DNA from: Candidatus Kapaibacterium sp. | Lineage (GTDB): Bacteria > Bacteroidota > Ignavibacteria > Kapaibacteriales > UBA2268 | DNA: 64,000 bases | Assembly: GCA_032027125.1 (NCBI GenBank) | Contig: JAVSMQ010000001.1 | Coordinates: forward strand, 3,241,620-3,305,619 | Reading direction: 5' to 3' | In this document: piece after piece, positions 1,824-28,447 of the stretch | Layout of the letters: the number at the start of each line of letters is the position of its first letter | Numbering within the stretch: position 1 is the first letter of the stretch | Made by a program: the position numbers and the translations under genes | Notes under the pieces: model-generated | Seen by the model: the letters and a program-made list of their open reading frames with translations, nothing else | What the model was told of the DNA's origin: nothing | The model's database searches: none

Positions 1824-3467
1824 TTACTTCTTTCTCCCTGACTCCAACAAGTCTAATGAATCTATCTGTTGCTGCTCAAGGAATTCATTTATATCACCCA
1901 TATATTCCTTAATCATTCCTTTTTTGAATTCAATAGTTTTGCTTGTTAATCCTTCAAGAAACTCTCTGTCGTGCGAAACAATAATCAAAGTACCTTTATA
2001 ATCAATCAGTGCATTCTTAAGCACATCTTTTGATATCATATCGAAGTGATTTGTCGGCTCATCGAGAATCAACACATTGATTGGCTGAAAGAGCATTTTG
2101 CAAAGACTTAAACGGGATTTTTCACCGCCGGAAAGTACTCTCACTTTTTTGTCAATTGAATTGCCGCTAAACAGAAATGCTCCGAGCATTGCACGTATTT
2201 TCTTTCTCATTTCCCCTTGGGCAACTCTGTCAATTGTTTCAAAAACTGTTGCGTCAGGGTCAAGAGATTCAGCCTGATGCTGAGAAAAATAACCGATGCT
2301 CAGATTTGCACCCGATTCCAAAACTCCCTCATAATCCATAATACCGGCTAAAATCTTTGATAATGTGGACTTACCTTCACCATTTTTGCCGACAAAACAA
2401 ACTTTTTCGCCACGTTCAATTTCAAAATTTATATCATTTAAAACAAGTTTTCTGTCATATTTTTTGATGAGACCCTTAGTCTCAAAAATCAATCTGGATG
2501 AGCGCGGGGGCTCAGGAAATGAAAAACGCATTTTGGATACATCTTCTTCTTCAACCTCAATCAAATCCATCTTCTCAAGCGCCTTAACTTTTGATTGAGC
2601 TCTGGCAGAAAATGCTGCTTTGGCTTTAAAACGTTCAATAAACCTTTCCTGCTGGGCTATATTTTTTTGCTGATTATTATATGCCGAAAGCTGCAGTTCT
2701 TTCTGGGTTGCTCTTTCCTGAACAAATCTTGAGTAAGGATACGGCAAATCATAAATTTTACCCAAAGAAAACTCAATGGTTCTATTGGTAATATTATCAA
2801 GGAATCTTTTATCGTGCGATACAATCATAATCGCGCCCTGATAAGTTTTCAGAAATACTTCAAGCCAGCGTATTGATTCGATATCAAGGTGGTTTGTCGG
2901 CTCATCAAGTAAAATGCAGTCATTCTGATTTAGAAGAATTTTTGCAAGATGAACACGCATCTGCCAGCCGCCGCTGAATTCATTCATATCCCTTGAAAAG
3001 TCACTACGTTCGAAACCAAGCCCAATCAGCACCTTTTCAATTTCCGCTTCAATAGACTGTCCGCCCAGATGATGGAAAAATTCACTTGCTTCTGTTAGGT
3101 TTTCGATGATTTTCATATACTCATCGGATTCATAATCGGTGCGTTCTTCAAGTTCTTTGGAATACCGGTTAATATCTTCTTCCAGTTTTTTAAATTCATC
3201 CAAAGCACTTTCAGCTTCTTCATAAATGGTTTTATCAGAATCGGTTTTGATTTCCTGCGGTAAATATCCGATTTTATATTTATTGGGTATTAAAATTTTA
3301 CCGCTTTCGGGAGATTCCAAACCGTATATGAGTTTCAGCATCGTTGATTTACCGGTACCGTTTCTGCCTATAAGACCGATTCTGTCATTTTCACCGACAG
3401 ATATAGATACATTGTCGAATAAATAACGTCCGGCAAAGTGAATTGAGACATTTTGTATATTTAGCAT
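1824..3467 (-). CDS. ABC-F family ATPase (two tandem ABC domains, no TMD)
   Basis: Two Walker A sites (GRNGTGKST; GKNGEGKST), ABC signature LSGG(W/E), two Walker B LLDEPTNHLD/ILDEPTNHFD, and a coiled linker between the domains. Confidence 0.85.
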   Translation of the reverse strand: MLNIQNVSIHFAGRYLFDNVSISVGENDRIGLIGRNGTGKSTMLKLIYGLESPESGKILIPNKYKIGYLPQEIKTDSDKTIYEEAESALDEFKKLEEDINRYSKELEERTDYESDEYMKIIENLTEASEFFHHLGGQSIEAEIEKVLIGLGFERSDFSRDMNEFSGGWQMRVHLAKILLNQNDCILLDEPTNHLDIESIRWLEVFLKTYQGAIMIVSHDKRFLDNITNRTIEFSLGKIYDLPYPYSRFVQERATQKELQLSAYNNQQKNIAQQERFIERFKAKAAFSARAQSKVKALEKMDLIEVEEEDVSKMRFSFPEPPRSSRLIFETKGLIKKYDRKLVLNDINFEIERGEKVCFVGKNGEGKSTLSKILAGIMDYEGVLESGANLSIGYFSQHQAESLDPDATVFETIDRVAQGEMRKKIRAMLGAFLFSGNSIDKKVRVLSGGEKSRLSLCKMLFQPINVLILDEPTNHFDMISKDVLKNALIDYKGTLIIVSHDREFLEGLTSKTIEFKKGMIKEYMGDINEFLEQQQIDSLDLLESGRKK

Positions 3468-5768: not shown

Positions 5769-5789
5769 AATTAGCTTCGCAGGTCTTCG
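5769..5789 (-). repeat. dispersed ~21-35-bp intergenic repeat, copy A (CGAAGACCTGCGAAGCTAATT, minus orientation)
   Basis: Reverse complement of 5769-5789 is CGAAGACCTGCGAAGCTAATT, identical to 23760-23780 and 1 mismatch from 24943-24963. Shares …GCTAATTACG with copy C. Confidence 0.7.
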
Positions 5790-17041: not shown

Positions 17042-18439
17042 ATGAAAATAATAAATGTTAAACAAAAATTGCTTGCTATATTTGTTCTGTGTATTTTTAC
17101 TTTCTGCCCGGAAAAAATTATTTCACAAAATAATCATCACGGTAAGAATGGTGCTTTAACAGAAACTGAAATGAAAATTGCAAAAATCGCCTGGAAATAT
17201 TTTCAAAATAACTATATTGAGGAAACAGGATTAGTCAATTCTGTGGACAATTATCCGACAATTACGTTATGGGACAACGGTTCCTATCTCGGAGCATTAG
17301 TTGCTGCATTCGAACTCGGAATAATTGATAATAATGAATTTGAAAAACGTATGTCTTTGTTTTTAAAAACTACCGGTAATCTGACCTTATTTAATTCTGA
17401 ACTTCCAAATAAGGTATATAATACAAAAACATTGAATAAGGTTGATTATGTAAATAAAAATAAAGATTTAGGATATTCTGCTCTGGACATAGCAAGATAT
17501 ATTTTATGGCTCAAAATCGTAAAAGAAAGATACCCGCAGTACAGTAATACAATTGATAATATAATGTTATCCTATGACTTTTCGAAAATTATTGATAGTG
17601 ATGGAAATTTATATGGCGGGAATCTCAACGAAAAAAATGAAATAAAATATTATCAGGAAGGGCGATTAGGATATGAAGAATACTGCGGAAAAATCTTTGC
17701 TCTTTGGGGATTTAATACTGCCAAGGCATCAAAACTTGAACCCTATACTACAAAAATAATATACGATATTGAAATTCCGGTAGATTCGAGAGATTCAAGG
17801 GAATATGGCGCCCATAATGCCGTACTTGCTGAATCATTTATACTTGATGGAATTGAACTTAACTGGGACTTGCCTGATGACAAATCAACAGATGATATGA
17901 AAAGTTCTGATTCAATTCTAACCAAAGAATTAGCTGATAGAATTTTTAAAGTTCAGTATGAAAGATTTAAGAATACTGGAATTCTGACGGCAAGGAGCGA
18001 ACATCAACTGGACGAATCGCCGTATTTTGTTTATGATTGTATTTATGCAAATGGATATCGCTGGAATACTATTGATACGAAAGGGAATTTTGTTCCGGAA
18101 TATGCAGCAGTTTCAACAAAAGCGGCTTTTGGATTATGGGTATTATGGAATTCATCATATTCAGACACTCTTTTTAATAATTCAGTAAATAATTATGATG
18201 CTGAAAAGGGCTTCTATGAAGGTATTTATGAAAATAACAAAAAACCTATTAAAGCATTTTCTGCCAACAATAACGGTATAATCCTGGAATGTCTTCTATA
18301 TAAGGTACAAGGTAAACTTCTAAAATATAATTCAGACATTAATTCACTTTGGGATCAAAGTATAAATGAAGGTACTGCCGATAAAAAAAGAATTCTTGAC
18401 AGACAAATAAAATATTTAAAAGGTAAAAATGAGAAATAG
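17042..18439 (+). CDS. secreted paralog 2 of 3 (DUF3131/glycoamylase-like periplasmic protein)
   Basis: Signal peptide. Shares the conserved blocks listed for 10882..12222. Confidence 0.5.
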   Translation: MKIINVKQKLLAIFVLCIFTFCPEKIISQNNHHGKNGALTETEMKIAKIAWKYFQNNYIEETGLVNSVDNYPTITLWDNGSYLGALVAAFELGIIDNNEFEKRMSLFLKTTGNLTLFNSELPNKVYNTKTLNKVDYVNKNKDLGYSALDIARYILWLKIVKERYPQYSNTIDNIMLSYDFSKIIDSDGNLYGGNLNEKNEIKYYQEGRLGYEEYCGKIFALWGFNTAKASKLEPYTTKIIYDIEIPVDSRDSREYGAHNAVLAESFILDGIELNWDLPDDKSTDDMKSSDSILTKELADRIFKVQYERFKNTGILTARSEHQLDESPYFVYDCIYANGYRWNTIDTKGNFVPEYAAVSTKAAFGLWVLWNSSYSDTLFNNSVNNYDAEKGFYEGIYENNKKPIKAFSANNNGIILECLLYKVQGKLLKYNSDINSLWDQSINEGTADKKRILDRQIKYLKGKNEK

Positions 18440-19838
18440 AATATTATCAAGATTAATCATCATAATTTTTTTATTAAATATTACAGGATTCTCCGGATGT
18501 GCTTTTGTTATTGATTCATTTGAAAGCGGAATAAATTCCATAAAGCGTGTGTTTCATACGAATAGAACCGGAACACTTGATGATAAGGAATATAAATGGG
18601 CTAAAATAGCCTGGCAGTATTTTGATAATAACTACAACAAAAATACAGGTTTGGTAAATGGCAAGGATGGATATCAAATAGCTACATTATGGAATATGTC
18701 TGATAATATAATGGCACTTATGGCAGCCTATGATTTGAAAATAATCAGTGAACACGAATTTGAAGGAAAACTCAGTAACCAGCTTAGATTCTTAAGTAAT
18801 ATGCAGCTTTGCAGTAATCTTCTGCCTAACAGAACATATAACACAGTCACCGGATTAATGGTTGATTATTCATGGAATCCTGGTGAATCCGGATGGGATG
18901 CTGTTGATATAGGCAGAATGTTGATTGTTTTGAAAATACTTGCCCAAAAGCATTCGCAATATAATGAATTTATTGATAAAATTGTTTTAAGGTGGGACTT
19001 ATGTTCGGCAGTTGATTCAGATGGTAATCTATTAAGCAGCAGTAAATGGAATAATTCGATTTCTGCATATCAGGATGGATATATCGGAACTAAAGAATAT
19101 ATTTCCAGAGGTTTTCAGGCTTGGGGTTATAATGTAAAAAAAGCAGGTAAATTTGAAAATTTCAACAAGGAAATCATTTTCAAAAAAGTTCTTTTTGTTG
19201 ATGGAAGAGATGAACGGTTAACAAAAAGTATAAATTCATTAGTTAGTTCCCATTATTTACTTGATAGGATTGAATTTGATAATCAGAACTTTGGTTCGAT
19301 TAAGGAAATTGATTATTTAGAAATTGATGACAGATACAAAATTCAAACTGAAAATATTTACAAGATACAGAAAATGAGATTTGAAATTGATAAAGTTATG
19401 ACTGCAAGAAACACTTATCAAAGTAATTCCGAACCTTTTATAATTTATAACACAATTTTTGGAAATGGATATACTTGGAATGTTTTAGACCCGAATGGTA
19501 AATATTTGAAAAATAAGGCACTCATTTCAACACAATCAGTGTTTAGTATGTGGGTTTTATGGGATGACTATTATACTGATGAACTAATGAACTTTATGAA
19601 GAATGCATTTGACCCATTATCCGGCTGGTATGAAGGCAGGTATGAATCATCAAGCAGTTTTGAAACAACAATTGTTAGTTCCACAAATGCTGTGATTCTT
19701 GAATCGTTATGGTTTAAAACTAATGGAAGATTATATGAGCAGACTGATATAAGCAATTCATATTATCTCAAATCCATTACAAGTGAATTATCAAATAAAA
19801 CCGGTTGCATTGGTAAGATTAGAAAAATATCAAAATAA
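18429..19838 (+). CDS. lipoprotein paralog 3 of 3 (DUF3131/glycoamylase-like periplasmic protein)
   Basis: Signal peptide with a Cys (…ITGFSGC). Shares the paralog blocks (IAWQYFDNNY, LWNMSDN, LPNRTYNT, YQDGYIGTKEY). Overlaps the previous gene by 11 bp. Confidence 0.5.
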   Translation: MRNRILSRLIIIIFLLNITGFSGCAFVIDSFESGINSIKRVFHTNRTGTLDDKEYKWAKIAWQYFDNNYNKNTGLVNGKDGYQIATLWNMSDNIMALMAAYDLKIISEHEFEGKLSNQLRFLSNMQLCSNLLPNRTYNTVTGLMVDYSWNPGESGWDAVDIGRMLIVLKILAQKHSQYNEFIDKIVLRWDLCSAVDSDGNLLSSSKWNNSISAYQDGYIGTKEYISRGFQAWGYNVKKAGKFENFNKEIIFKKVLFVDGRDERLTKSINSLVSSHYLLDRIEFDNQNFGSIKEIDYLEIDDRYKIQTENIYKIQKMRFEIDKVMTARNTYQSNSEPFIIYNTIFGNGYTWNVLDPNGKYLKNKALISTQSVFSMWVLWDDYYTDELMNFMKNAFDPLSGWYEGRYESSSSFETTIVSSTNAVILESLWFKTNGRLYEQTDISNSYYLKSITSELSNKTGCIGKIRKISK

Positions 19839-19852
19839 AACAGGAAATAATT

Positions 19853-21712
19853 ATGCTGGAATCAAAGTTTAACCGAAAATATTATTTTTATTTGCTTTTT
19901 GTAAATATATGTCTGAATTTCTCAGTTGCATTTGCAGATGAAACAAAATTTGTAAAAGAAGTAATTAATATTGGGAAATATAAAAGAGAATTTTATGTAT
20001 TCATACCTTCAACTGCTAAAGATATCAATAATCCTGCTATAATCGCTTTTCACGGATTTGAAAGCAACGCAAATGCAATGAGGTATCTGATTAGTCCGGA
20101 TTTACTTGCTCAGGAATACGGTTTTGTAATGGTATATCCCCAGGGCAATAATAATAACTGGAATGTAGGGATAGGCAATGATACGCTTTTTTCTGATGCA
20201 GATGATTTTGAATTCATTTCTCAGATGATTGATACATTAATCTTTAAATACAAAATCAATAAGGATGAAATCTTTTCTCTGGGTTTTTCTGAAGGTGCAC
20301 AAATGGCTGCTTCATATACGTGCAAATTTCCCGGAAAAATCAGTGCTGTGGGAATGGTCTCATATATATATAAACCGGAATCCTGTAATTTTACAAAGAA
20401 AATTCCTATAGCTGTTATTAATTCAAAGGAAGATAAAATTGTCCCTTTCGAAGGGGGAGGTAAATTTAATCATATTTCGCACGATTCTGCAGTAAGTTAT
20501 TTTAAGTCGCTAAATCAGACTAATCCAATGTCATCGGTTGTAGTTAATAAAAATACAGCTAAGTGTATTTCATATAAAAATATTAGTGAGAATGTCGAAG
20601 TTATTGACTGTATATGCAGTAAAGGAGGACATACATGGCCCGGAGGTATTGAAATCAATGAAGCAACATTTGGAAAAGTAAATAATGATTTAAATGCTAC
20701 TGAATTTTTTATGAAATTCTTTTCAAAATACTGCAAGGAACCTTATCAAACAGAAACCGGATATACTGCTGCAAATGAATTAAAAAAAGCAAATGATAAC
20801 CAAATTAAATCAATCACACGATATGGTTTTCTTGTTTCGGATGATTTAAGCTCAGATGATAATAGGGAAGAGTCAGAATGGCAAAAAATTTTAAAGGGTA
20901 TTAAAAGCTCATTCTCCTTTAAAAGTACGAGGGAAAAGCCAAAATCCGGCTGGGATAAGCTGCTGGACGGATTCAGTGGCAATTTCTCTTTTGTTTTTCC
21001 TATTACAAAAACAGAAACATTTAATGATAAAGGAAGTAATTCACAAGGCGAACCAAATAATAATATAGCATTAAATGCTTCAATCAGATATAATCCTTTA
21101 TCGTATTGGTTTGTTGGGGCTACTTTTTATAAATATTTAAACAGTGATTTGCAGGCTCCCTGGCATCCTGATTTTACTTATACATTTGGTTATGACGACT
21201 GGCATCCCTATACTTTAAGTTTGGTTTATTCAAATTATAATGGTAATCGCTTTAATCCTGATAATAATGAATCGGTTACAAATATTTGGGAAGGTTCTTT
21301 TGCATTGGGATGGAAATTCCCGCCAATTAAGGTAATTGAAAATTTAATAAAATTTCATCCAACATCCGGTTTAGGGCATAAATTGAGTTATAATGTTGTT
21401 CCTGTTTATTATGACAATTCAACAAATTCTAAACAAGATTGGAAGCAATCAATCTCATTATATACAAAATACACAATATACAAGAGTTTCTATATAGATA
21501 TAAATATGTACTATTATTTGAACCAATCACAGCAACAGCCTTGGGATCCTGATTTTAATTATACATTTGGTTATTTCGATTGGAGGGCAGGTACATTTGC
21601 CTTCAGATATAACAACTACTCAGGTAACAGATTTTTCTGGAGAAACAGAAATGATAATACAGGGCGTTTTACTGACGGATTTTTCTCTATAGCATGGAGT
21701 TGGATGTATTAG
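19853..21712 (+). CDS. secreted alpha/beta-hydrolase (PHB-depolymerase/LpqC-type esterase) fused to a C-terminal internally duplicated domain
   Basis: Signal peptide. Esterase half has HGFESNANAM…YPQG…NWNVG and the nucleophile elbow LGFSEGAQM. C-terminal half has two copies of a ~35-aa unit (APWHPDFTYTFGYDDWHPYTLSLVYSNYNGNRF / QPWDPDFNYTFGYFDWRAGTFAFRYNNYSGNRF). Confidence 0.55.
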   Translation: MLESKFNRKYYFYLLFVNICLNFSVAFADETKFVKEVINIGKYKREFYVFIPSTAKDINNPAIIAFHGFESNANAMRYLISPDLLAQEYGFVMVYPQGNNNNWNVGIGNDTLFSDADDFEFISQMIDTLIFKYKINKDEIFSLGFSEGAQMAASYTCKFPGKISAVGMVSYIYKPESCNFTKKIPIAVINSKEDKIVPFEGGGKFNHISHDSAVSYFKSLNQTNPMSSVVVNKNTAKCISYKNISENVEVIDCICSKGGHTWPGGIEINEATFGKVNNDLNATEFFMKFFSKYCKEPYQTETGYTAANELKKANDNQIKSITRYGFLVSDDLSSDDNREESEWQKILKGIKSSFSFKSTREKPKSGWDKLLDGFSGNFSFVFPITKTETFNDKGSNSQGEPNNNIALNASIRYNPLSYWFVGATFYKYLNSDLQAPWHPDFTYTFGYDDWHPYTLSLVYSNYNGNRFNPDNNESVTNIWEGSFALGWKFPPIKVIENLIKFHPTSGLGHKLSYNVVPVYYDNSTNSKQDWKQSISLYTKYTIYKSFYIDINMYYYLNQSQQQPWDPDFNYTFGYFDWRAGTFAFRYNNYSGNRFFWRNRNDNTGRFTDGFFSIAWSWMY

Positions 21713-21780
21713 ATGCCAACTCAAATGAGCAAATATGACACTCATGTACTGCTTCAGAGAAAAATGGACCAATCAAGTAA

Positions 21781-22317
<537 letters not shown>

Positions 22318-22386
22318 TGTATTAATATAATACCTATATGATTATAATTTCCTTATTTTTGTTGTTAAAATTATAAGTATATCAGA

Positions 22387-23112
22387 TTAATGATATTTTA
22401 CTATCCTACTTTTTCCATTCTGATAATTTTTTATTTGAGGACTTGGTTTAAAAAATTGTAAGTTGTAGAAATCCATATTGATTTTACCATTTTCGAAAAG
22501 ATTTTTGACATGTTCATCATTTTTAAACATTCTGAAGCAATAAACATCGCCATAGTCCTTTTTGTGTATCATAAAAACACTACAAACTTTATAATTTTGA
22601 CCGAATTCAGGGTCAATATTACAAAATGCAGTAATGCCATAATCTGCATTAAACTGTTTCTTTACTCCTATCAAAGGAAATTCAGTGATTGATCGTTTTG
22701 CACCTGCCATGCTTGAGTCATCTTTTTTGCAAATATTAAATAAAATTGCCATAAAATATGATTTATGATAATTATTCGGGTCAACGAAGTATTCTTCTTT
22801 AATTGAATCATTTTTCTTCTTTCCGCTTGCTTTGCGTTCCAAAAAAGCATTATAATCTAATAGTGCGCTGTCTAAGGGTTGTATCAAATATCTTACTTCA
22901 ATTTCATTTTCAAGTCTATAAGCAAAGTTATAATATACCTGCTCATTTTTAACGACAGGAACATAATTAAATTTTTCAGGAAGAAATAATACCAAATCAG
23001 CTCTTTCAAGTAAATTTTGAATTTCTTTAAAATTATCTTCAGAACATTTTGAAGATATAAGAGTTAAAAATAAAATCAAAAATATTGTCAATAAAGCAAA
23101 TTTTGTTTTCAT
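22387..23112 (-). CDS. hypothetical secreted protein
   Basis: Signal peptide (MKTKFALLTIFLILFLTLISS). No recognisable domain. Confidence 0.35.
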   Translation of the reverse strand: MKTKFALLTIFLILFLTLISSKCSEDNFKEIQNLLERADLVLFLPEKFNYVPVVKNEQVYYNFAYRLENEIEVRYLIQPLDSALLDYNAFLERKASGKKKNDSIKEEYFVDPNNYHKSYFMAILFNICKKDDSSMAGAKRSITEFPLIGVKKQFNADYGITAFCNIDPEFGQNYKVCSVFMIHKKDYGDVYCFRMFKNDEHVKNLFENGKINMDFYNLQFFKPSPQIKNYQNGKSRIVKYH

Positions 23113-23113
23113 T

Positions 23114-23671
23114 TTATTTAATGTTCCGATTAATTAATGAACTATTATCTAAAAATTCAGTATTCTCATTTTTTCTTAAAGCCCATATTTTCAAATAATT
23201 AATATCAGTGTGGCTATATATTTTTTTTTCGCCTGATTCCGGAGAATCCACTATCAATATGTAACTTCCGTCAGCCCAATATGAATAGCCTTTCAGCTCT
23301 GCAGCATGAAGTTTGTTACTAAAGATATTTTTTTTCTCATATATTACAATATAACTTTCATTAATCCAAGTTATTGATAATAATGCAGTAGTATCAGGAT
23401 TATCAATTAATTTTGCTGTTAAACCAAGATTTTTCCAAATTTGTGGTAAGTCTTTTACAAATACTTTGCCTGCCGAATCTAAATTGATAAATTTCTGAAT
23501 ATTTTCATTAATTTCAAAATGATTATGGGGTTCATAATATAACATAATTCGTTTAGTACAAATTTGGATTGAACCATCATCAATAAATAGTTTCTCTTTC
23601 TCCTTATTGTAATCTATTGAAGTACATGAAGAAATGATTAAAACCATCATCAATAAATAAATTCCTTTCAT
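23114..23671 (-). CDS. hypothetical lipoprotein
   Basis: Signal peptide with a lipobox-like LIISSC. No recognisable domain. Confidence 0.35.
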   Translation of the reverse strand: MKGIYLLMMVLIISSCTSIDYNKEKEKLFIDDGSIQICTKRIMLYYEPHNHFEINENIQKFINLDSAGKVFVKDLPQIWKNLGLTAKLIDNPDTTALLSITWINESYIVIYEKKNIFSNKLHAAELKGYSYWADGSYILIVDSPESGEKKIYSHTDINYLKIWALRKNENTEFLDNSSLINRNIK

Positions 23672-23759
23672 AATTTTCCTATCAAATATTTGTTATAAAT
23701 TTTAGTTTTTTTTTAAAATTTCTTGTCAAATTCAAGAACTCCACAATCAATCACGAACT

Positions 23760-23780
23760 CGAAGACCTGCGAAGCTAATT
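23760..23780 (+). repeat. dispersed intergenic repeat, copy B
   Basis: AATCAATCACGAACTCGAAGACCTGCGAAGCTAATTTC. Extended similarity (AATCAA…GAAC.CGAAGACC.GCGAAGCTAATT) to copy C. Confidence 0.7.
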
Positions 23781-23938
23781 TCAATTTCTTGGAATATAAT
23801 TGTATCTTTCCGATATTTTAAGCAATTCTTAAAAATCTTTTACATCGTATTTTATCATCACTATGTTCAATTTAAATATATTTTAATTTTAAAAAATAAT
23901 AAATTCAACTCTTAAGTTTTCAAATATTTTTTCTATTA

Positions 23939-24817
23939 TTAATAATTTGTATATTCAATTTTGTATCTTGATTTACCAAAATCAGGATTTATATATCCAA
24001 TAATATTATCTTTTGAATCAAATTCGAATCTTTCTATCTTCTTTTCTTCTATGCGATATCCTTTGTACATTACCCACTCATAAATCCTTGTATTGTTTGT
24101 GTCGTTATTTATTTTATCATAAGAAATTTGTTTAATATTGTTTCCATCGCTATCATAAAAATATTCGGTTACAGATCCACTGGTTGAATCTTTTCCATTT
24201 AAAGTATAAATCAATTCCTTTTTGTTATCATAACGCCTGAACGTTTTTCTAACTGATCCTGAAATAATGGTTGAATCAACTTGTAATGTACATAATCCAT
24301 TTATATCATAAAAAAAATCACTAATTCCATAGAGGATATTATCTCTGTACATTTGCGTCTTGACTAATTTTTCTCCTTCTCTTGTATATACATAATATGA
24401 GGACTTATTCGACGAGGAATATGAGTCAAAATAGCCAATTTTGATATAACCCTCACTATCATATTCATAACGAGTAATAGCATAATAGCTTGAATCATTC
24501 GAATATTCAATATTTTTTATGAGGCAACCGTATTTAAATAGTGGAAGTGGGACGTTAGAACGATCTTGTTGGAGAGTACTTTGGTATTTAAAGTTTCCAG
24601 TCCAACTCCTTAACATTCTTCTGAGATATCCATCAACATCTCCATCAAAAAAATATTCTGAATTTTTAACAAAATCGTTAGTATCACCGGAATGAGAAAC
24701 ATAAATTGTTATTTTCATTTTTTGGAAAGAATTATTGACATTAATTCCATTATCACCACAAGATGAAAAAACAAGAAAGCAAAATAAACTAATAAAAAAA
24801 TAAAATGAATTCTTCAT
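23939..24817 (-). CDS. lipoprotein with YD-repeat-like motifs
   Basis: Signal peptide plus Cys (VFSSC). Repeated motifs YEYDSEGY, FFYDINGL, YFYDSDGNNIKQISYDKINN. Flanked on both sides by copies of a ~30-bp dispersed repeat. Confidence 0.45.
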   Translation of the reverse strand: MKNSFYFFISLFCFLVFSSCGDNGINVNNSFQKMKITIYVSHSGDTNDFVKNSEYFFDGDVDGYLRRMLRSWTGNFKYQSTLQQDRSNVPLPLFKYGCLIKNIEYSNDSSYYAITRYEYDSEGYIKIGYFDSYSSSNKSSYYVYTREGEKLVKTQMYRDNILYGISDFFYDINGLCTLQVDSTIISGSVRKTFRRYDNKKELIYTLNGKDSTSGSVTEYFYDSDGNNIKQISYDKINNDTNNTRIYEWVMYKGYRIEEKKIERFEFDSKDNIIGYINPDFGKSRYKIEYTNY

Positions 24818-24942
24818 AATTAACCTTTTAATGTATTATTTAACAGATTATTCAAAAATATAAATATTTTAAAGAAGAAAACAAAAAAAAATTACAAATT
24901 GACTTCTAATCATCATTTCATACGAATTTCAAATCAAGAACC

Positions 24943-24963
24943 CGAAGACCAGCGAAGCTAATT
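24943..24963 (+). repeat. dispersed intergenic repeat, copy C
   Basis: AATCAAGAACCCGAAGACCAGCGAAGCTAATTACG. Together with copy B it brackets the 292-aa YD-like lipoprotein gene in direct orientation. Confidence 0.7.
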
Positions 24964-25031
24964 ACGAGTTAATTGATGTAGATTGTATTTATATGATTTA
25001 AATTAACTTATACCAAATATTTTCTTACTTT

Positions 25032-25694
25032 TTATTTTTCTTCCAATTTTGTTACTAATGTTTCAACCCAATTCCTAAATCTCGGGCATTTTTCAATAAT
25101 TGCTTCTATTCCAATTTCCTGAGCTATAAGATTTCCATAAACAATCTTGTTGTAATCCTTAATAATATCCAATAATCTTTTTGATGGTGCAGTATTTGGA
25201 TTATCATTTATATCTTCGGGATTCGGGTATTTGTCGATAATATTTTCAATATCTTTAATAACTCTGGGTTCCGAACTCCAAAAAGAATTAAACCCTTTAT
25301 TTGATGAGAATAACAAAGCTTCAAACTCATAAAGTTGAATATAAGGTAGAAATCTGTCGTCAGATATATTATCCTTCATAGCTCTTTCTAATGCTTCTAC
25401 TTTAAGATTTGATGTTCTTAATTTCATTGATTGATCATATTTCGGAACGTTAGTTGGAATTTTAAAAAAATCTACTAAAGTTGAAACGAAAATATCTGAT
25501 TGGCTTTTTAATAATCTATTTACATCATTTTTTAAATGTTCATAATTAACAAATCCACCTTTTTGACTTTTACTAGTTTGAATCTTAATAGGATGTACAA
25601 CATAAATATTCTTTGAGATTAAATAGTTCCGCAGTATGGTTTTTACGAATTCTTCTTCAGTCTGACCTTCAACAATAATAAATAATCGTTTCAT
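25032..25694 (-). CDS. DUF4276-like protein (Toprim-like putative nuclease partner of an AAA ATPase)
   Basis: 220 aa. N-terminal MKRLFIIVEGQTEEEFV (acidic E-G-x-T-E in a beta-strand context, as in Toprim/OLD-type folds). Conserved YEFEALLFS block. Start overlaps the stop of the upstream ATPase (ATGA at 25694). Confidence 0.55.
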   Translation of the reverse strand: MKRLFIIVEGQTEEEFVKTILRNYLISKNIYVVHPIKIQTSKSQKGGFVNYEHLKNDVNRLLKSQSDIFVSTLVDFFKIPTNVPKYDQSMKLRTSNLKVEALERAMKDNISDDRFLPYIQLYEFEALLFSSNKGFNSFWSSEPRVIKDIENIIDKYPNPEDINDNPNTAPSKRLLDIIKDYNKIVYGNLIAQEIGIEAIIEKCPRFRNWVETLVTKLEEK

Positions 25695-26782
25695 TAAGGT
25701 TTGCCTCCGATTACATTCTTTTCCCAGAGTTCACCTATTGTATAATCTTCAAGCCAGTCTTTTAAATTTTCTTTTGATAATCTTTTAAAAACTGACTGTT
25801 TTTCTTCTCTATCCACAACTAAAATATTTTCAGGTTCAAAATTTTCTATTAAATTTACTGATTGTGTTGAAATAATTACCTGAGTTTTTTGTGAGGCACT
25901 CAATATTAACCCTGCAAGTTTATTTATTGCAAAAGGGTGTAATCCCAGTTCCGGTTCGTCAATAATAATCGTCTTTGGTAGATGAGGTTGTAATAATAAA
26001 GTAGCTAAACAAATAAATCTCAGTGACCCATCTGATAAATTATTAGCATCAAAATATGTATCTGTACCGGTTTCTTTCCATTCGATTTTTATAAAATCGG
26101 GATTAAGGGCTAATGGTTTTAAATCAAATTCATTAAAATAAGGTGCAACAGATTTAATTGTACTTTCGATTAAATTAAAATTCTTAGGATATTTATATTT
26201 CAATAAATATAGAAATGCTGATAAATTACTGGCATCCATTCTTAAAAAACTATTATCGTTTATATTACACGATTTCTTTACTTTAGCTGTATTACTTGTG
26301 TCATTAAAATGGAATACTTTAAATCCTCTTAAATAATCGTTAATAAATTTGTATCTACCTGTCTGCTTGTCTTTTAATGAACTTTCTGAATGACCTCGTA
26401 ACCAAGTATCATCTTTCCACTTTGGAGTTTTTTCTTTTTTGTCATAATTTGTATTAAAACCATTTGTCTCATAATCAAAGTAAAATGTTCCTGAATTTGT
26501 AGTATTTAATGATAATTCGTAGCAATTTGTATTTTCAAAGAAAATTTTTGTGTATATCCGATTTGTTACTTTTGAACCAAAATATAAAAGGTTGTCAGCT
26601 CCTCCCTGTTCTAAAGTGTAGTTTTGAAGATTTTTATCATAAATGTTACTTAACATTTCAAAAAAAGATATAAAATTGCTTTTACCCACACCATTAGCTC
26701 CTATTAGTATATTTAGATTTGATAATTCAATTTCTAAATTCCTAATCGATTTGTAACCTTGAATAAGTATTTTATTTATCAT
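25694..26782 (-). CDS. AAA_15/AAA_21-type ABC-like ATPase (OLD/PARIS-AriA/AbiLi-like)
   Basis: 362 aa. Walker A GANGVGKSN within the first 40 aa. ABC-type signature-like LSDGSLRF. Walker B IIIDEPELGLHP. The long insertion between A and B is typical of the SMC/OLD-like AAA_15/21 clade. Confidence 0.7.
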   Translation of the reverse strand: MINKILIQGYKSIRNLEIELSNLNILIGANGVGKSNFISFFEMLSNIYDKNLQNYTLEQGGADNLLYFGSKVTNRIYTKIFFENTNCYELSLNTTNSGTFYFDYETNGFNTNYDKKEKTPKWKDDTWLRGHSESSLKDKQTGRYKFINDYLRGFKVFHFNDTSNTAKVKKSCNINDNSFLRMDASNLSAFLYLLKYKYPKNFNLIESTIKSVAPYFNEFDLKPLALNPDFIKIEWKETGTDTYFDANNLSDGSLRFICLATLLLQPHLPKTIIIDEPELGLHPFAINKLAGLILSASQKTQVIISTQSVNLIENFEPENILVVDREEKQSVFKRLSKENLKDWLEDYTIGELWEKNVIGGKP

Positions 26783-26905
26783 TCCTATAATCCTCTTTAA
26801 AATCTATGGTTTTAATGTCTAAATTAAATTGTAATTATAAATTTCAATTTATGAAAGAAAAATACAATAATAGAACGTCTTAATTAAAAATCATTGTTTT
26901 TAATT

Positions 26906-28447
26906 TCATTCCCACTCTATTGTCCCCGGAGGCTTGCTTGTGATGTCATAAACAACTCGGTTTATGCCTCTAATTTCGTTAATTATACGGCTGCTGATTT
27001 TTGAAAGCACGTCGTAAGGCATCGGAAACCAATCGGCAGTCATACCGTCCACGCTTGTAACGGCACGCAGGGCGCAGGTGTTTTCGTAAGTACGTTCGTC
27101 GCCCATTACTCCGACTGATTTAACGGGCAGAAGTACTGCAAAAGCCTGCCAGATCTGGTCGTAAAGTCCGGCATTACGGATTTCTTCTATATAGATAGCG
27201 TCGGCTCTTTGGAGTGTATCAATTTTCTCACGGGTGATTTCGCCGAGTATGCGGATACCTAAACCGGGACCCGGAAACGGATGACGGTTGACAAACCAGT
27301 CCGGTACACCGAGTTCACGACCTACTGCACGAACTTCATCCTTAAATAATTCGCGGAAAGGTTCGAGCAGCTTAAGACCCATTTTTTCGGGTAAACCGCC
27401 GACATTATGATGCGACTTTATTACAACCGAAGGACCTTTTACCGAAACCGATTCAATTACATCGGGATAAAGTGTTCCCTGCGCGAGCCAGCCGGCATTG
27501 TTAAATCTTTCTGCAGCTACATCAAAGAGGTCAATAAAAGATTTTCCGATACTCTTGCGTTTCAATTCCGGGTCACTGACTCCTTCAAGAGCTCCAAGAA
27601 ATGTTTCTGTACCGTCAATTAATTCAAGCGACATTTTAAAATTTTCTTCAAAGAGCTTCATCAGTTTTAAGCTTTCGTTCAGCCGCATCAGACCGGTATC
27701 TATATGAATGCAATGAAGTTTATCCCCGATTGCCTTGTGCAGAAGTACCGCAAGAACAGTTGAATCAACTCCACCGGATAAAGCACAAATCACTTCTTTA
27801 TCACCAACCTGCTCCCGAATATTTTTAATTGCCAATTCAACAAAAGAATGTGCATCCCAATTTTCCGTACAGCCGCAAATATTTCTCAGGAAATTGTTGA
27901 GAATGATTTTTCCGTCTGGTGTATGATGAACTTCAGGATGAAACTGCACTCCCCAGATTTTACGTTTAGCAGAGCGGACAGCACAAATCGGCGCATTTGT
28001 GGTATGTGCTACAACTTCAAATCCTTCGGGAAGTTTTGTCAGTGAATCACCGTGACTCATCCAGACGGTTGAGTTTGCCGGAAATCCTTCAAATAGCGGG
28101 TCGGGTTTATCAACGAGCAAATGCGCCCTGCCGAATTCACGGTGGGCAGCTTTGTTAACTTCACCCCCCAACTGATAGGCAATTAGCTGCAAGCCGTAAC
28201 ATATCCCGACAACCGGAATATCCAGATTAAAGACATTAAAAGCAGGGTGAGGGGCGCCGTCGGCATATACGCTCGAAGGACCGCCTGATAAAATCAATCC
28301 CTTAGGATTTATCTCTTTAAGCTTTTCTTCCGTAATATTAAACGGATAAATTTCCGCAAAAACGCCGCATTCGCGGACTTTTCGTGCAATCAACTGCGTA
28401 TATTGAGAGCCGAAATCAAGGATTACAATTTTTTCTGTGTTGAGCAT
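26906..28447 (-). CDS. guaA: GMP synthase (glutamine-hydrolysing)
   Basis: Class-I GATase N-terminus ([18 protein letters not shown]…GICYGLQ). ATP-PPase SGGVDS motif. Dimerisation C-terminus …PPGTIEWE. Confidence 0.95.

Follow-up and report, generated by a model that had tools for sequence, protein, structure and literature searches.

Does a short gene for an ATPase, overlapping a gene for a 220-aa protein beside guaA, encode an anti-phage system, and had such a pairing been named before? The question was raised by two minus-strand genes in a 64,000-nucleotide (nt) stretch of contig JAVSMQ010000001.1 of Candidatus Kapaibacterium sp. (assembly GCA_032027125.1, positions 3,241,620 to 3,305,619), referred to here as the window. 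An earlier note on this DNA had read them as an OLD/PARIS/AbiL-type defence pair and could not tell whether the pairing had been characterised. Based on the present analysis, it was concluded that the pair is a copy of an already catalogued candidate module, PADLOC HEC-01, which consists of an ATP-binding cassette (ABC) ATPase (HEC-01A, or A) and a DUF4276 Toprim-like protein (HEC-01B, or B). We considered an intact stand-alone HEC-01 cassette to be the best explanation, at a probability of about 0.7. In this reading a coupled ABC ATPase and a separate OLD-like Toprim nuclease form an insertion of ~2 kb between guaA and a native lipoprotein gene, and their mechanism is drawn by analogy.

Results and Discussion

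Identity of the Gene Pair

Both predicted open reading frames (ORFs) were borne out in position, strand and length (Table 1). The Pfam assignments anticipated for them were obtained as well: the ATPase matched AAA_21 (2.8e-31) and AAA_15 (2.6e-15), and the 220-aa protein matched DUF4276 over the whole profile (3.6e-58). The PADLOC model HEC-01A (PDLC04175) recognised the ATPase at 2.2e-148, with residues 2–362 aligned to profile positions 6–362 of 363, whereas the generic models AriA, AbiLi, Old, GajA and mad3 matched it only at 1e-16 to 1e-30. The model HEC-01B (PDLC04188) matched residues 1–215 of the 220-aa protein at 1.1e-83. The two genes adjoin on the same strand in the A-then-B order, which together with the two model matches makes the pair a member of HEC-01. 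A scan of NCBIfam gave only sub-threshold matches for the ATPase (MAD3 NF047739, 101.7 bits against a cutoff of 420) and no family for the 220-aa protein.

Since both matches were full-length and HEC-01 had been published as a candidate, the pairing already has a name. HEC-01 stands for Hma-embedded candidate 01 and was discovered by Payne et al. among genes embedded in Hma systems (10.1101/2024.01.29.577857). The same work described it as an ABC ATPase with a TOPRIM-like partner, the metal site of which aligns to that of Burkholderia OLD (BpOLD). The link between DUF4276 and Toprim was also found in print: one paper assigned DUF4276 to the Toprim superfamily and called Mad4 its homologue (PMC12065111). 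Another extended the known set of systems that join an ABC ATPase to a TOPRIM protein by MADS3-4 and AbiL (PMC11464382). The family is large. A profile search of 1.84 billion representatives with HEC-01B returned 4,384 clusters (50% identity) at E <= 0.001, and the search with the ATPase gave at least ~8,000 matches.

Pairing and Gene Junction

One genome per species was scanned for close relatives of B, 239 of which were found, and 80 loci were kept. The pairing was obligate, as an ATPase homologue lay directly upstream of the B homologue on the same strand in all 80 loci. In these loci the stop codon of A and the start codon of B overlapped or were within ~10 nt of each other. A 4-nt ATGA overlap was the commonest junction; elsewhere the genes overlapped by 1 nt or stood a few bases apart. 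The ATGA type had been claimed for the window copy, where the junction in fact reads CCT TAA TG A, so that the TAA stop and the ATG start have one base in common (TAATG). A GGAGG, which arises from the Gly-Gly codons in the conserved tail of the ATPase, stands 9 nt ahead of the B start; the same motif precedes the B start in 49 of the 80 homologous loci. Shine-Dalgarno (SD) sites are rarely used by Bacteroidota, for which a GGAGG ahead of B is unusual.

To judge from its sequence, the 123-nt spacer between guaA and the ATPase could possibly hold a promoter of its own or serve as a read-through path from guaA. In that spacer the promoter/terminator scan found no terminator-like site and no more promoter-like matches than in shuffled controls. 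An Rfam scan of 21500–27200 gave a chance snoRNA match and nothing else.

Structure and Conserved Residues of HEC-01B

The model of the 220-aa protein was built from an 87-sequence alignment and reached a pLDDT (predicted local distance difference test) of 93 and a predicted template modelling (pTM) score of 0.89. Four strands with helices between them were followed by a helical C-terminal half, and the strands made up the four-stranded parallel sheet of a Toprim three-layer alpha/beta fold. The top Foldseek match was the C-terminal region of Xanthomonas OLD (6njv) with a probability of 0.96 and a template modelling (TM) score of 0.46–0.48. Among solved structures, two methods ranked the Toprim and helical region of class 2 OLD first, ahead of GajA, AriB and the Eco8 OLD nuclease. 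Comparison with the PDB by sequence or profile yielded either no match or spurious ones to ribonucleotide reductase and adenylate cyclase, hence the fold comparison alone was informative. The suspected Toprim-like fold was thereby upheld by an OLD-like Toprim and helical model with conserved acidic residues, and the protein begins with MKRLFIIVEGQTEEEFV, the opening quoted in the earlier note.

Conservation was assessed in 133 of the 150 best matches, which were 32–58% identical to the window protein; the matches listed were mostly ~220 aa long. Residues E9, G10, E13, D75, E123, P170, K183, F206 and W209 were invariant in 133/133 sequences, and E125 (132/133), E160 (132/133) and R173 (130/133) were nearly so. 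These included residues of catalytic type. The invariant E9 sits right after strand 1 (residues 3–8), where the Glu of Toprim domains is located, and D75 ends strand 3 (residues 68–75), at the position of the first Asp of the Toprim DxD motif. The second metal ligand may come from the invariant E123-x-E125 that follows strand 4, the putative geometry of the active site being inferred from topology and conservation in the model. It was also observed that residue 122 of the window protein (25329–25331) is Tyr, where the consensus is His (121 of 133).

Structure and Conserved Residues of HEC-01A

The ATPase was modelled with confidence as an ABC fold that resembles PtuA, AriA and GajA, ATPases of defence systems, and its best structural matches were the heads of SMC, Rad50 and RecN/RecF. 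No coiled coil was present. The motifs on which the ABC assignment had been based were all found, namely the Walker A GANGVGKS (residues 28–35), LSDGSLRF and IIIDEPELGLHP. The Walker A, the signature S250-D251-G252 and the Walker B D275-E276 were invariant in 76/76 ATPase sequences. Together with the head fold, the Walker A, the signature and the Walker B Asp-Glu placed the protein among ABC ATPases of the SMC/Rad50/OLD type. His282, in the D-loop segment ELGLHP, was invariant too (76/76). The last seven residues of the ATPase (KNVIGGKP) were nearly invariant and were modelled by AlphaFold as disordered. Residue 160 of the window ATPase (26303–26305) is Asn, while the consensus at this position is His (71 of 76).

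Distribution and Nesting in Type III Operons

The relatives of B were mostly from Bacteroidota, and others came from Acidobacteriota, Pseudanabaena (Cyanobacteria), Fimbriimonadales (Armatimonadota) and one metagenome-assembled genome (MAG) of Proteobacteria. A Hyphomicrobiales MAG carries a relative of B at 63% identity. The distribution of the pair across phyla is patchy, and the pair was present on 13 plasmids and 4 IMG/VR contigs.

The neighbourhood check proposed in the earlier note for enrichment near defence genes did not refute its reading: the homologues often lay within Type III restriction-modification (R-M) operons. The upstream neighbour of the pair was a Type III methyltransferase in 13 of 68 loci, and the downstream neighbour was a Type III restriction enzyme in 13 of 61. 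By tblastn, mod directly upstream and res directly downstream enclosed the pair in 14 of the 60 loci with both flanks, and at least one of the two genes adjoined it in 19 of the 60. The junctions of the nested pairs with mod and res measured 2–4 nt (nested examples are L004, L011, L013, L032, L039, L041, L043, L045-L050, L055 and L084-L093). Contigs of gut Bacteroidales showed the order SNF2 helicase, methyltransferase, A, B and ResIII, with an integrase nearby. A few other neighbours of homologous pairs were AbiEi, Type IIG, AriA-like or PDC candidate genes.

Such nesting raises the possibility that the pair functions solely in concert with a Type III R-M or Hma-like system, as its accessory or guard, perhaps by sensing the inhibition of restriction, as PrrC does inside EcoprrI. 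On this view the window copy would be an orphan, almost or entirely inactive. The exact placement between mod and res with 2-nt and 4-nt junctions speaks for this explanation, as do the gut Bacteroidales loci, the discovery of the family embedded in Hma and the window itself, which has no mod, res or SNF2 homologue. Against it stand about two-thirds of the homologous pairs, including the closest relatives L001-L003, which have no adjoining R-M genes. Further, the window copy keeps every invariant residue of both proteins, and the order guaA-A-B-orf292 (orf292 being the lipoprotein-like gene next to the pair) recurs in contigs from three separate samples. The candidates chosen by Payne et al. 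were also common outside Hma loci (10.1101/2024.01.29.577857). We therefore regarded a dependence of the window copy on an R-M partner as unlikely and retained the autonomous HEC-01 cassette.

The Accessory Insertion

The pair showed a presence/absence polymorphism. In the metagenome contig L104, the guaA of which is 83% identical to that of the window, guaA is followed after ~160 nt by a homologue of orf292 (52% identity) with no pair between them. Two further relatives (guaA 77–79% identical) also had no pair downstream of guaA, and another Kapaibacterium carried it (65–66% identity) at another place, with a HEPN gene on one side and 2-oxoglutarate dehydrogenase on the other. Since guaA is directly followed by the orf292 homologue in L104, the variable unit is the ~2 kb pair alone, an accessory indel. 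The intergenic alignment of this empty site was too diverged to place the breakpoints.

The empty site also bears on a housekeeping role in DNA repair or maintenance, similar to that of RecF (ABC ATPase) with RecR (Toprim). The composition of the pair is that of RecF/RecR, the RecN/RecF heads were among the best structural matches of the ATPase, and the pair adjoins guaA in a window that holds no defence island. The RecF model TIGR00611, however, scored 23 bits against a cutoff of 172, the ATPase lacks a coiled coil, and the family-specific hidden Markov models that did match were models of defence candidates. The absence of the pair from the same site in a close relative, its different location in another Kapaibacterium and its patchy phyletic spread contradict such a role, and we held it to be very improbable. 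For the same reasons, the pair does not behave as a core housekeeping operon, an outcome that the earlier note had named as fatal to a defence reading.

The idea of a horizontally acquired islet stood in part. The ~2 kb pair is accessory and is missing at the same site in L104, but at least one of the three orphan genes counted into the islet, orf292, is native: its homologue is syntenic with guaA in L104, which lacks the pair, and orf292 is therefore a lineage-specific gene rather than island cargo. No homologue of the other two orphans was found in any fetched locus.

The dispersed repeat that was said to bracket the islet is real and lies elsewhere. It is intergenic, with a 21-nt near-identical core, CGAAGACCWGCGAAGCTAATT, and occurs in three copies in 64 kb, when none would be expected by chance. 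The first two copies flank orf292, the third is 18 kb away, and none lies between guaA and the ATPase. An islet bracketed by the repeat was thus rejected: it is orf292 that the repeat flanks, the pair has no direct repeats at its sides, and neither an integrase nor a transposase nor a tRNA was found in the 64-kb window. The guanine-cytosine (GC) content was not distinctive either, the 0.26–0.29 of the pair being the same as in the flanking DNA other than guaA. Two copies of the repeat lie immediately 3' of genes on the minus strand, the other between divergently oriented genes. The repeat gave no Rfam match, and its three copies shared no common predicted fold.

Genomic Context in the Window

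The two proteins of the pair showed 100% identity to entries of a Candidatus Kapabacteria MAG. The surroundings described for the pair were confirmed, with guaA on one side and three signal-peptide orphans and a truncated aldo/keto-reductase gene on the other. The aldo/keto-reductase remnant has lost its 5' part and lies beside the 3' end of an esterase-like gene (19853–21712), its truncated 5' end facing away from the pair. Within 10 kb on either side, guaA, a tyrosinase, Por_Secre_tail proteins, DUF3131, an esterase-like protein and a PAS/SpoIIE protein were encoded. Two tandem, slightly overlapping DUF3131 paralogues were located at 17042–19838 (+), and a third protein with DUF3131 was detected by Pfam at another place in the window.

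Apart from those of the pair, the PADLOC matches in the window were most likely generic ones to ordinary genes. At 1827–3467 (−), an ABC-F protein, which has two nucleotide-binding domains, matched PADLOC mad3 (7.7e-45) and also AriA; the similarity is a generic one among ABC proteins, and the gene, which might be taken for a defence gene, is not one. Behind the QatD, ZorB and Cas3/mad8 matches, inference pointed to a TatD DNase, an OmpA/MotB-like protein and an Mfd-like helicase, respectively.

Table 1. Coordinates of the gene pair, its conserved sites and the surrounding features (positions in the window unless a contig is named).
Feature	Position	Strand	Remark
HEC-01A	25694..26782	−	362-aa ABC ATPase (SMC/Rad50-head-like)
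HEC-01B	25032..25694	−	220-aa DUF4276 protein; modelled OLD-like Toprim core and C-terminal helical region
A/B coupling junction	25692..25708	−	read from the sequence; GGAGG 25708-25704, TAA 25696-25694, ATG 25694-25692
Spacer, guaA stop to ATPase start	26783..26905	−	123 nt; SD-like AGAGGA at 26796-26791
A, Walker A G28-S35	26678-26701	−	
A, signature S250-G252	26027-26035	−	
A, Walker B D275-E276	25955-25960	−	
A, switch (H-loop) position Q307	25862-25864	−	Gln
A, tail KN[VI]IGG[RK]P	25695-25718	−	nearly invariant in the window and L001-L080
B, E9	25668-25670	−	conserved acidic residue
B, E13	25656-25658	−	conserved acidic residue
B, D75	25470-25472	−	conserved acidic residue
B, E123-x-E125	25320-25328	−	conserved acidic residues
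B, K183	25146-25148	−	conserved Lys
guaA	26906..28447	−	directly upstream of the ATPase
Three Pfam-less ORFs with lipoprotein-like N-termini	22387..24817	−	downstream of the pair
orf292	23939-24817	−	292 aa, lipoprotein-like
Aldo/keto-reductase pseudogene remnant	~21790-22317	+	C-terminal ~175 residues left in frame
Repeat, copy one	23749-23814	+	
Repeat, copy two	24932-24997	+	
Repeat, copy three	5769-5789	−	
orf292 homologue in contig L104	1356-2240		directly after guaA

Weighing of the Defence Function

The HEC-01 cassette reading draws on the family identity, the two folds, the catalytic-type residues, the obligate pairing, the patchy spread, the presence/absence polymorphism and the Type III nesting, and from these a defence function of the window copy is suggested by analogy. 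Several results weigh against it. In HEC-01B, all 133 sequences have Tyr or Phe at position 77, where DxD would have its second Asp, so the family carries a variant of the motif, D-x-[YF] together with an E-x-E that follows strand 4. In HEC-01A, the H-loop His is replaced, the residue after strand 301–306 being Gln (Q307) in 76/76 sequences. Owing to these two substitutions, catalysis may differ from that of OLD and PARIS or be slow. A search of the literature turned up no biochemical activity for any DUF4276 protein. The representative that the discoverers tested protected against none of the BASEL or classic coliphages (10.1101/2024.01.29.577857). Ordinary metabolic genes neighbour about two-thirds of the homologous pairs, and the HEC-01 pair family had no match in 50,697 phage genomes. 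The window contained no other defence gene, contrary to the defence-island residence that had been proposed; a tblastn search of its 64 kb detected no Type III mod or res partner and no SNF2 homologue, and neither an integrase nor a target-site duplication was found in it.

A positive result has been reported as well. In a study of cold-seep microbes, one HEC-01 representative gave E. coli B protection from T7, T5 or T4, at least one of the three (10.1101/2024.09.26.614923). The two published tests thus conflict, and both used copies other than that of the window.

The negative test would also suit a selfish addiction cassette of the toxin-antitoxin kind, in which a nuclease toxin is restrained by the ATPase and which persists because its loss is harmful. 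The pair is indeed a small, coupled and mobile two-gene cassette that is also found on plasmids and inserts beside unrelated housekeeping genes. A large ATPase followed by an effector, with ABC and Toprim folds, nevertheless represents the sensor-effector layout of defence systems and not that of the known toxin-antitoxin families. The nesting inside R-M operons points to immunity, and one phage assay was positive. An addiction cassette was therefore judged quite unlikely, with the addition that addiction and defence are not mutually exclusive.

Proposed Mechanism

In PARIS, the ATPase scaffold releases the Toprim nuclease (PMC11464382). By analogy with PARIS, OLD and Gabija, it was proposed that an oligomer of HEC-01A would bind ATP and hold or license the nuclease. 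A phage cue, plausibly a restriction-blocking protein or a foreign nucleic-acid structure, would alter the state of the ATPase, and the Toprim protein would then cleave nucleic acid (host tRNA or DNA). The metal site could be formed by E9, E13, D75 and E123/E125, with K183 contributed by the helical region. Phage replication would be halted at the cost of the infected cell, and the infection would be aborted. Slow hydrolysis is suggested by the Gln at the switch position and would be more in keeping with a latch than with a motor, and the conserved disordered tail of the ATPase is a candidate for the tether that holds the nuclease.

A more specific version can be put forward only tentatively, and we consider it doubtful as a whole. 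HEC-01 might be a minimal split OLD, in which a non-canonical metal site (E, E, D-x-[YF], E-x-E and a Lys of the helical domain) is combined with a Gln-switch ATPase acting as a slow, ATP-bound latch. It might have evolved chiefly as a guard that is set between Type III mod and res and fires once restriction is blocked, the stand-alone copies having become autonomous. The KN[VI]IGG[RK]P tail could tether the nuclease.

Comparison with Known Systems

The proposed membership in an OLD/PARIS/AbiL type held as far as the composition is concerned, an ABC ATPase with a Toprim-like partner, and failed for PARIS, AbiL and Gabija themselves. The AriB protein of PARIS belongs to DUF4435, and the window pair gave no DUF4435 match in Pfam and no AriB match in PADLOC at E <= 0.1. 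HEC-01A is a ~40 kDa protein, compared with ~53–55 kDa for AriA. PARIS is often carried by phages or satellites, in contrast to the HEC-01 family with its lack of matches among the phage genomes searched.

AbiL and Gabija resemble the window pair in combining an AAA_15/21 ABC ATPase with a nuclease of the Toprim superfamily. The ATPase, however, matched AbiLi at 1.4e-20 and the GajA models at ~1e-18, compared with 2.2e-148 for HEC-01A. AbiLii of AbiL is of the RloB type, whereas the window pair gave no RloB or AbiLii match. GajA of Gabija is a fused protein that needs the UvrD-like helicase GajB, and no UvrD-like helicase was found within 10 kb on either side of the pair. In MADS, Mad3 is likewise an AAA_15/21 ABC ATPase, and Mad4 was reported as a DUF4276 homologue (PMC12065111, PMC11464382). 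The window ATPase matched the mad3 models weakly, its MAD3 score was far below the cutoff, and the window held no other mad genes and no methyltransferase.

In structure, the 220-aa protein came closest to the class 2 OLD proteins (BpOLD 6NK8, XccOLD 6NJV), with ~160 matched residues spanning the Toprim core and the helical region. From topology it was deduced that they have in common a Glu behind strand 1, the E-x3-E spacing, an Asp behind strand 3 and a conserved Lys in the helical part. Unlike OLD, in which the ATPase is fused to the Toprim domain in a single polypeptide, the window pair consists of two separate ORFs. HEC-01B further differs from OLD by Tyr or Phe in place of the second DxD Asp, by the invariant E-x-E after strand 4 and by the lack of detectable similarity at the sequence level.

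With respect to HEC-01 itself, the window copy leaves the existing knowledge of this kind of system unchanged. Within a large family, it supplies a clear natural case of an autonomous pair for which the empty site is defined, located outside Hma or any R-M system in a Kapabacteria MAG. The models built here bore out the published ABC ATPase and TOPRIM-like assignments. The points added by the survey are the variant catalytic constellation of the nuclease, the Gln switch of the ATPase and the frequent mod-[A-B]-res nesting. The work that defined HEC-01 surveyed Hma, BREX, DISARM and Type I R-M systems for embedding, whereas the related pairs sampled here nest in Type III R-M operons, which lay outside that survey.

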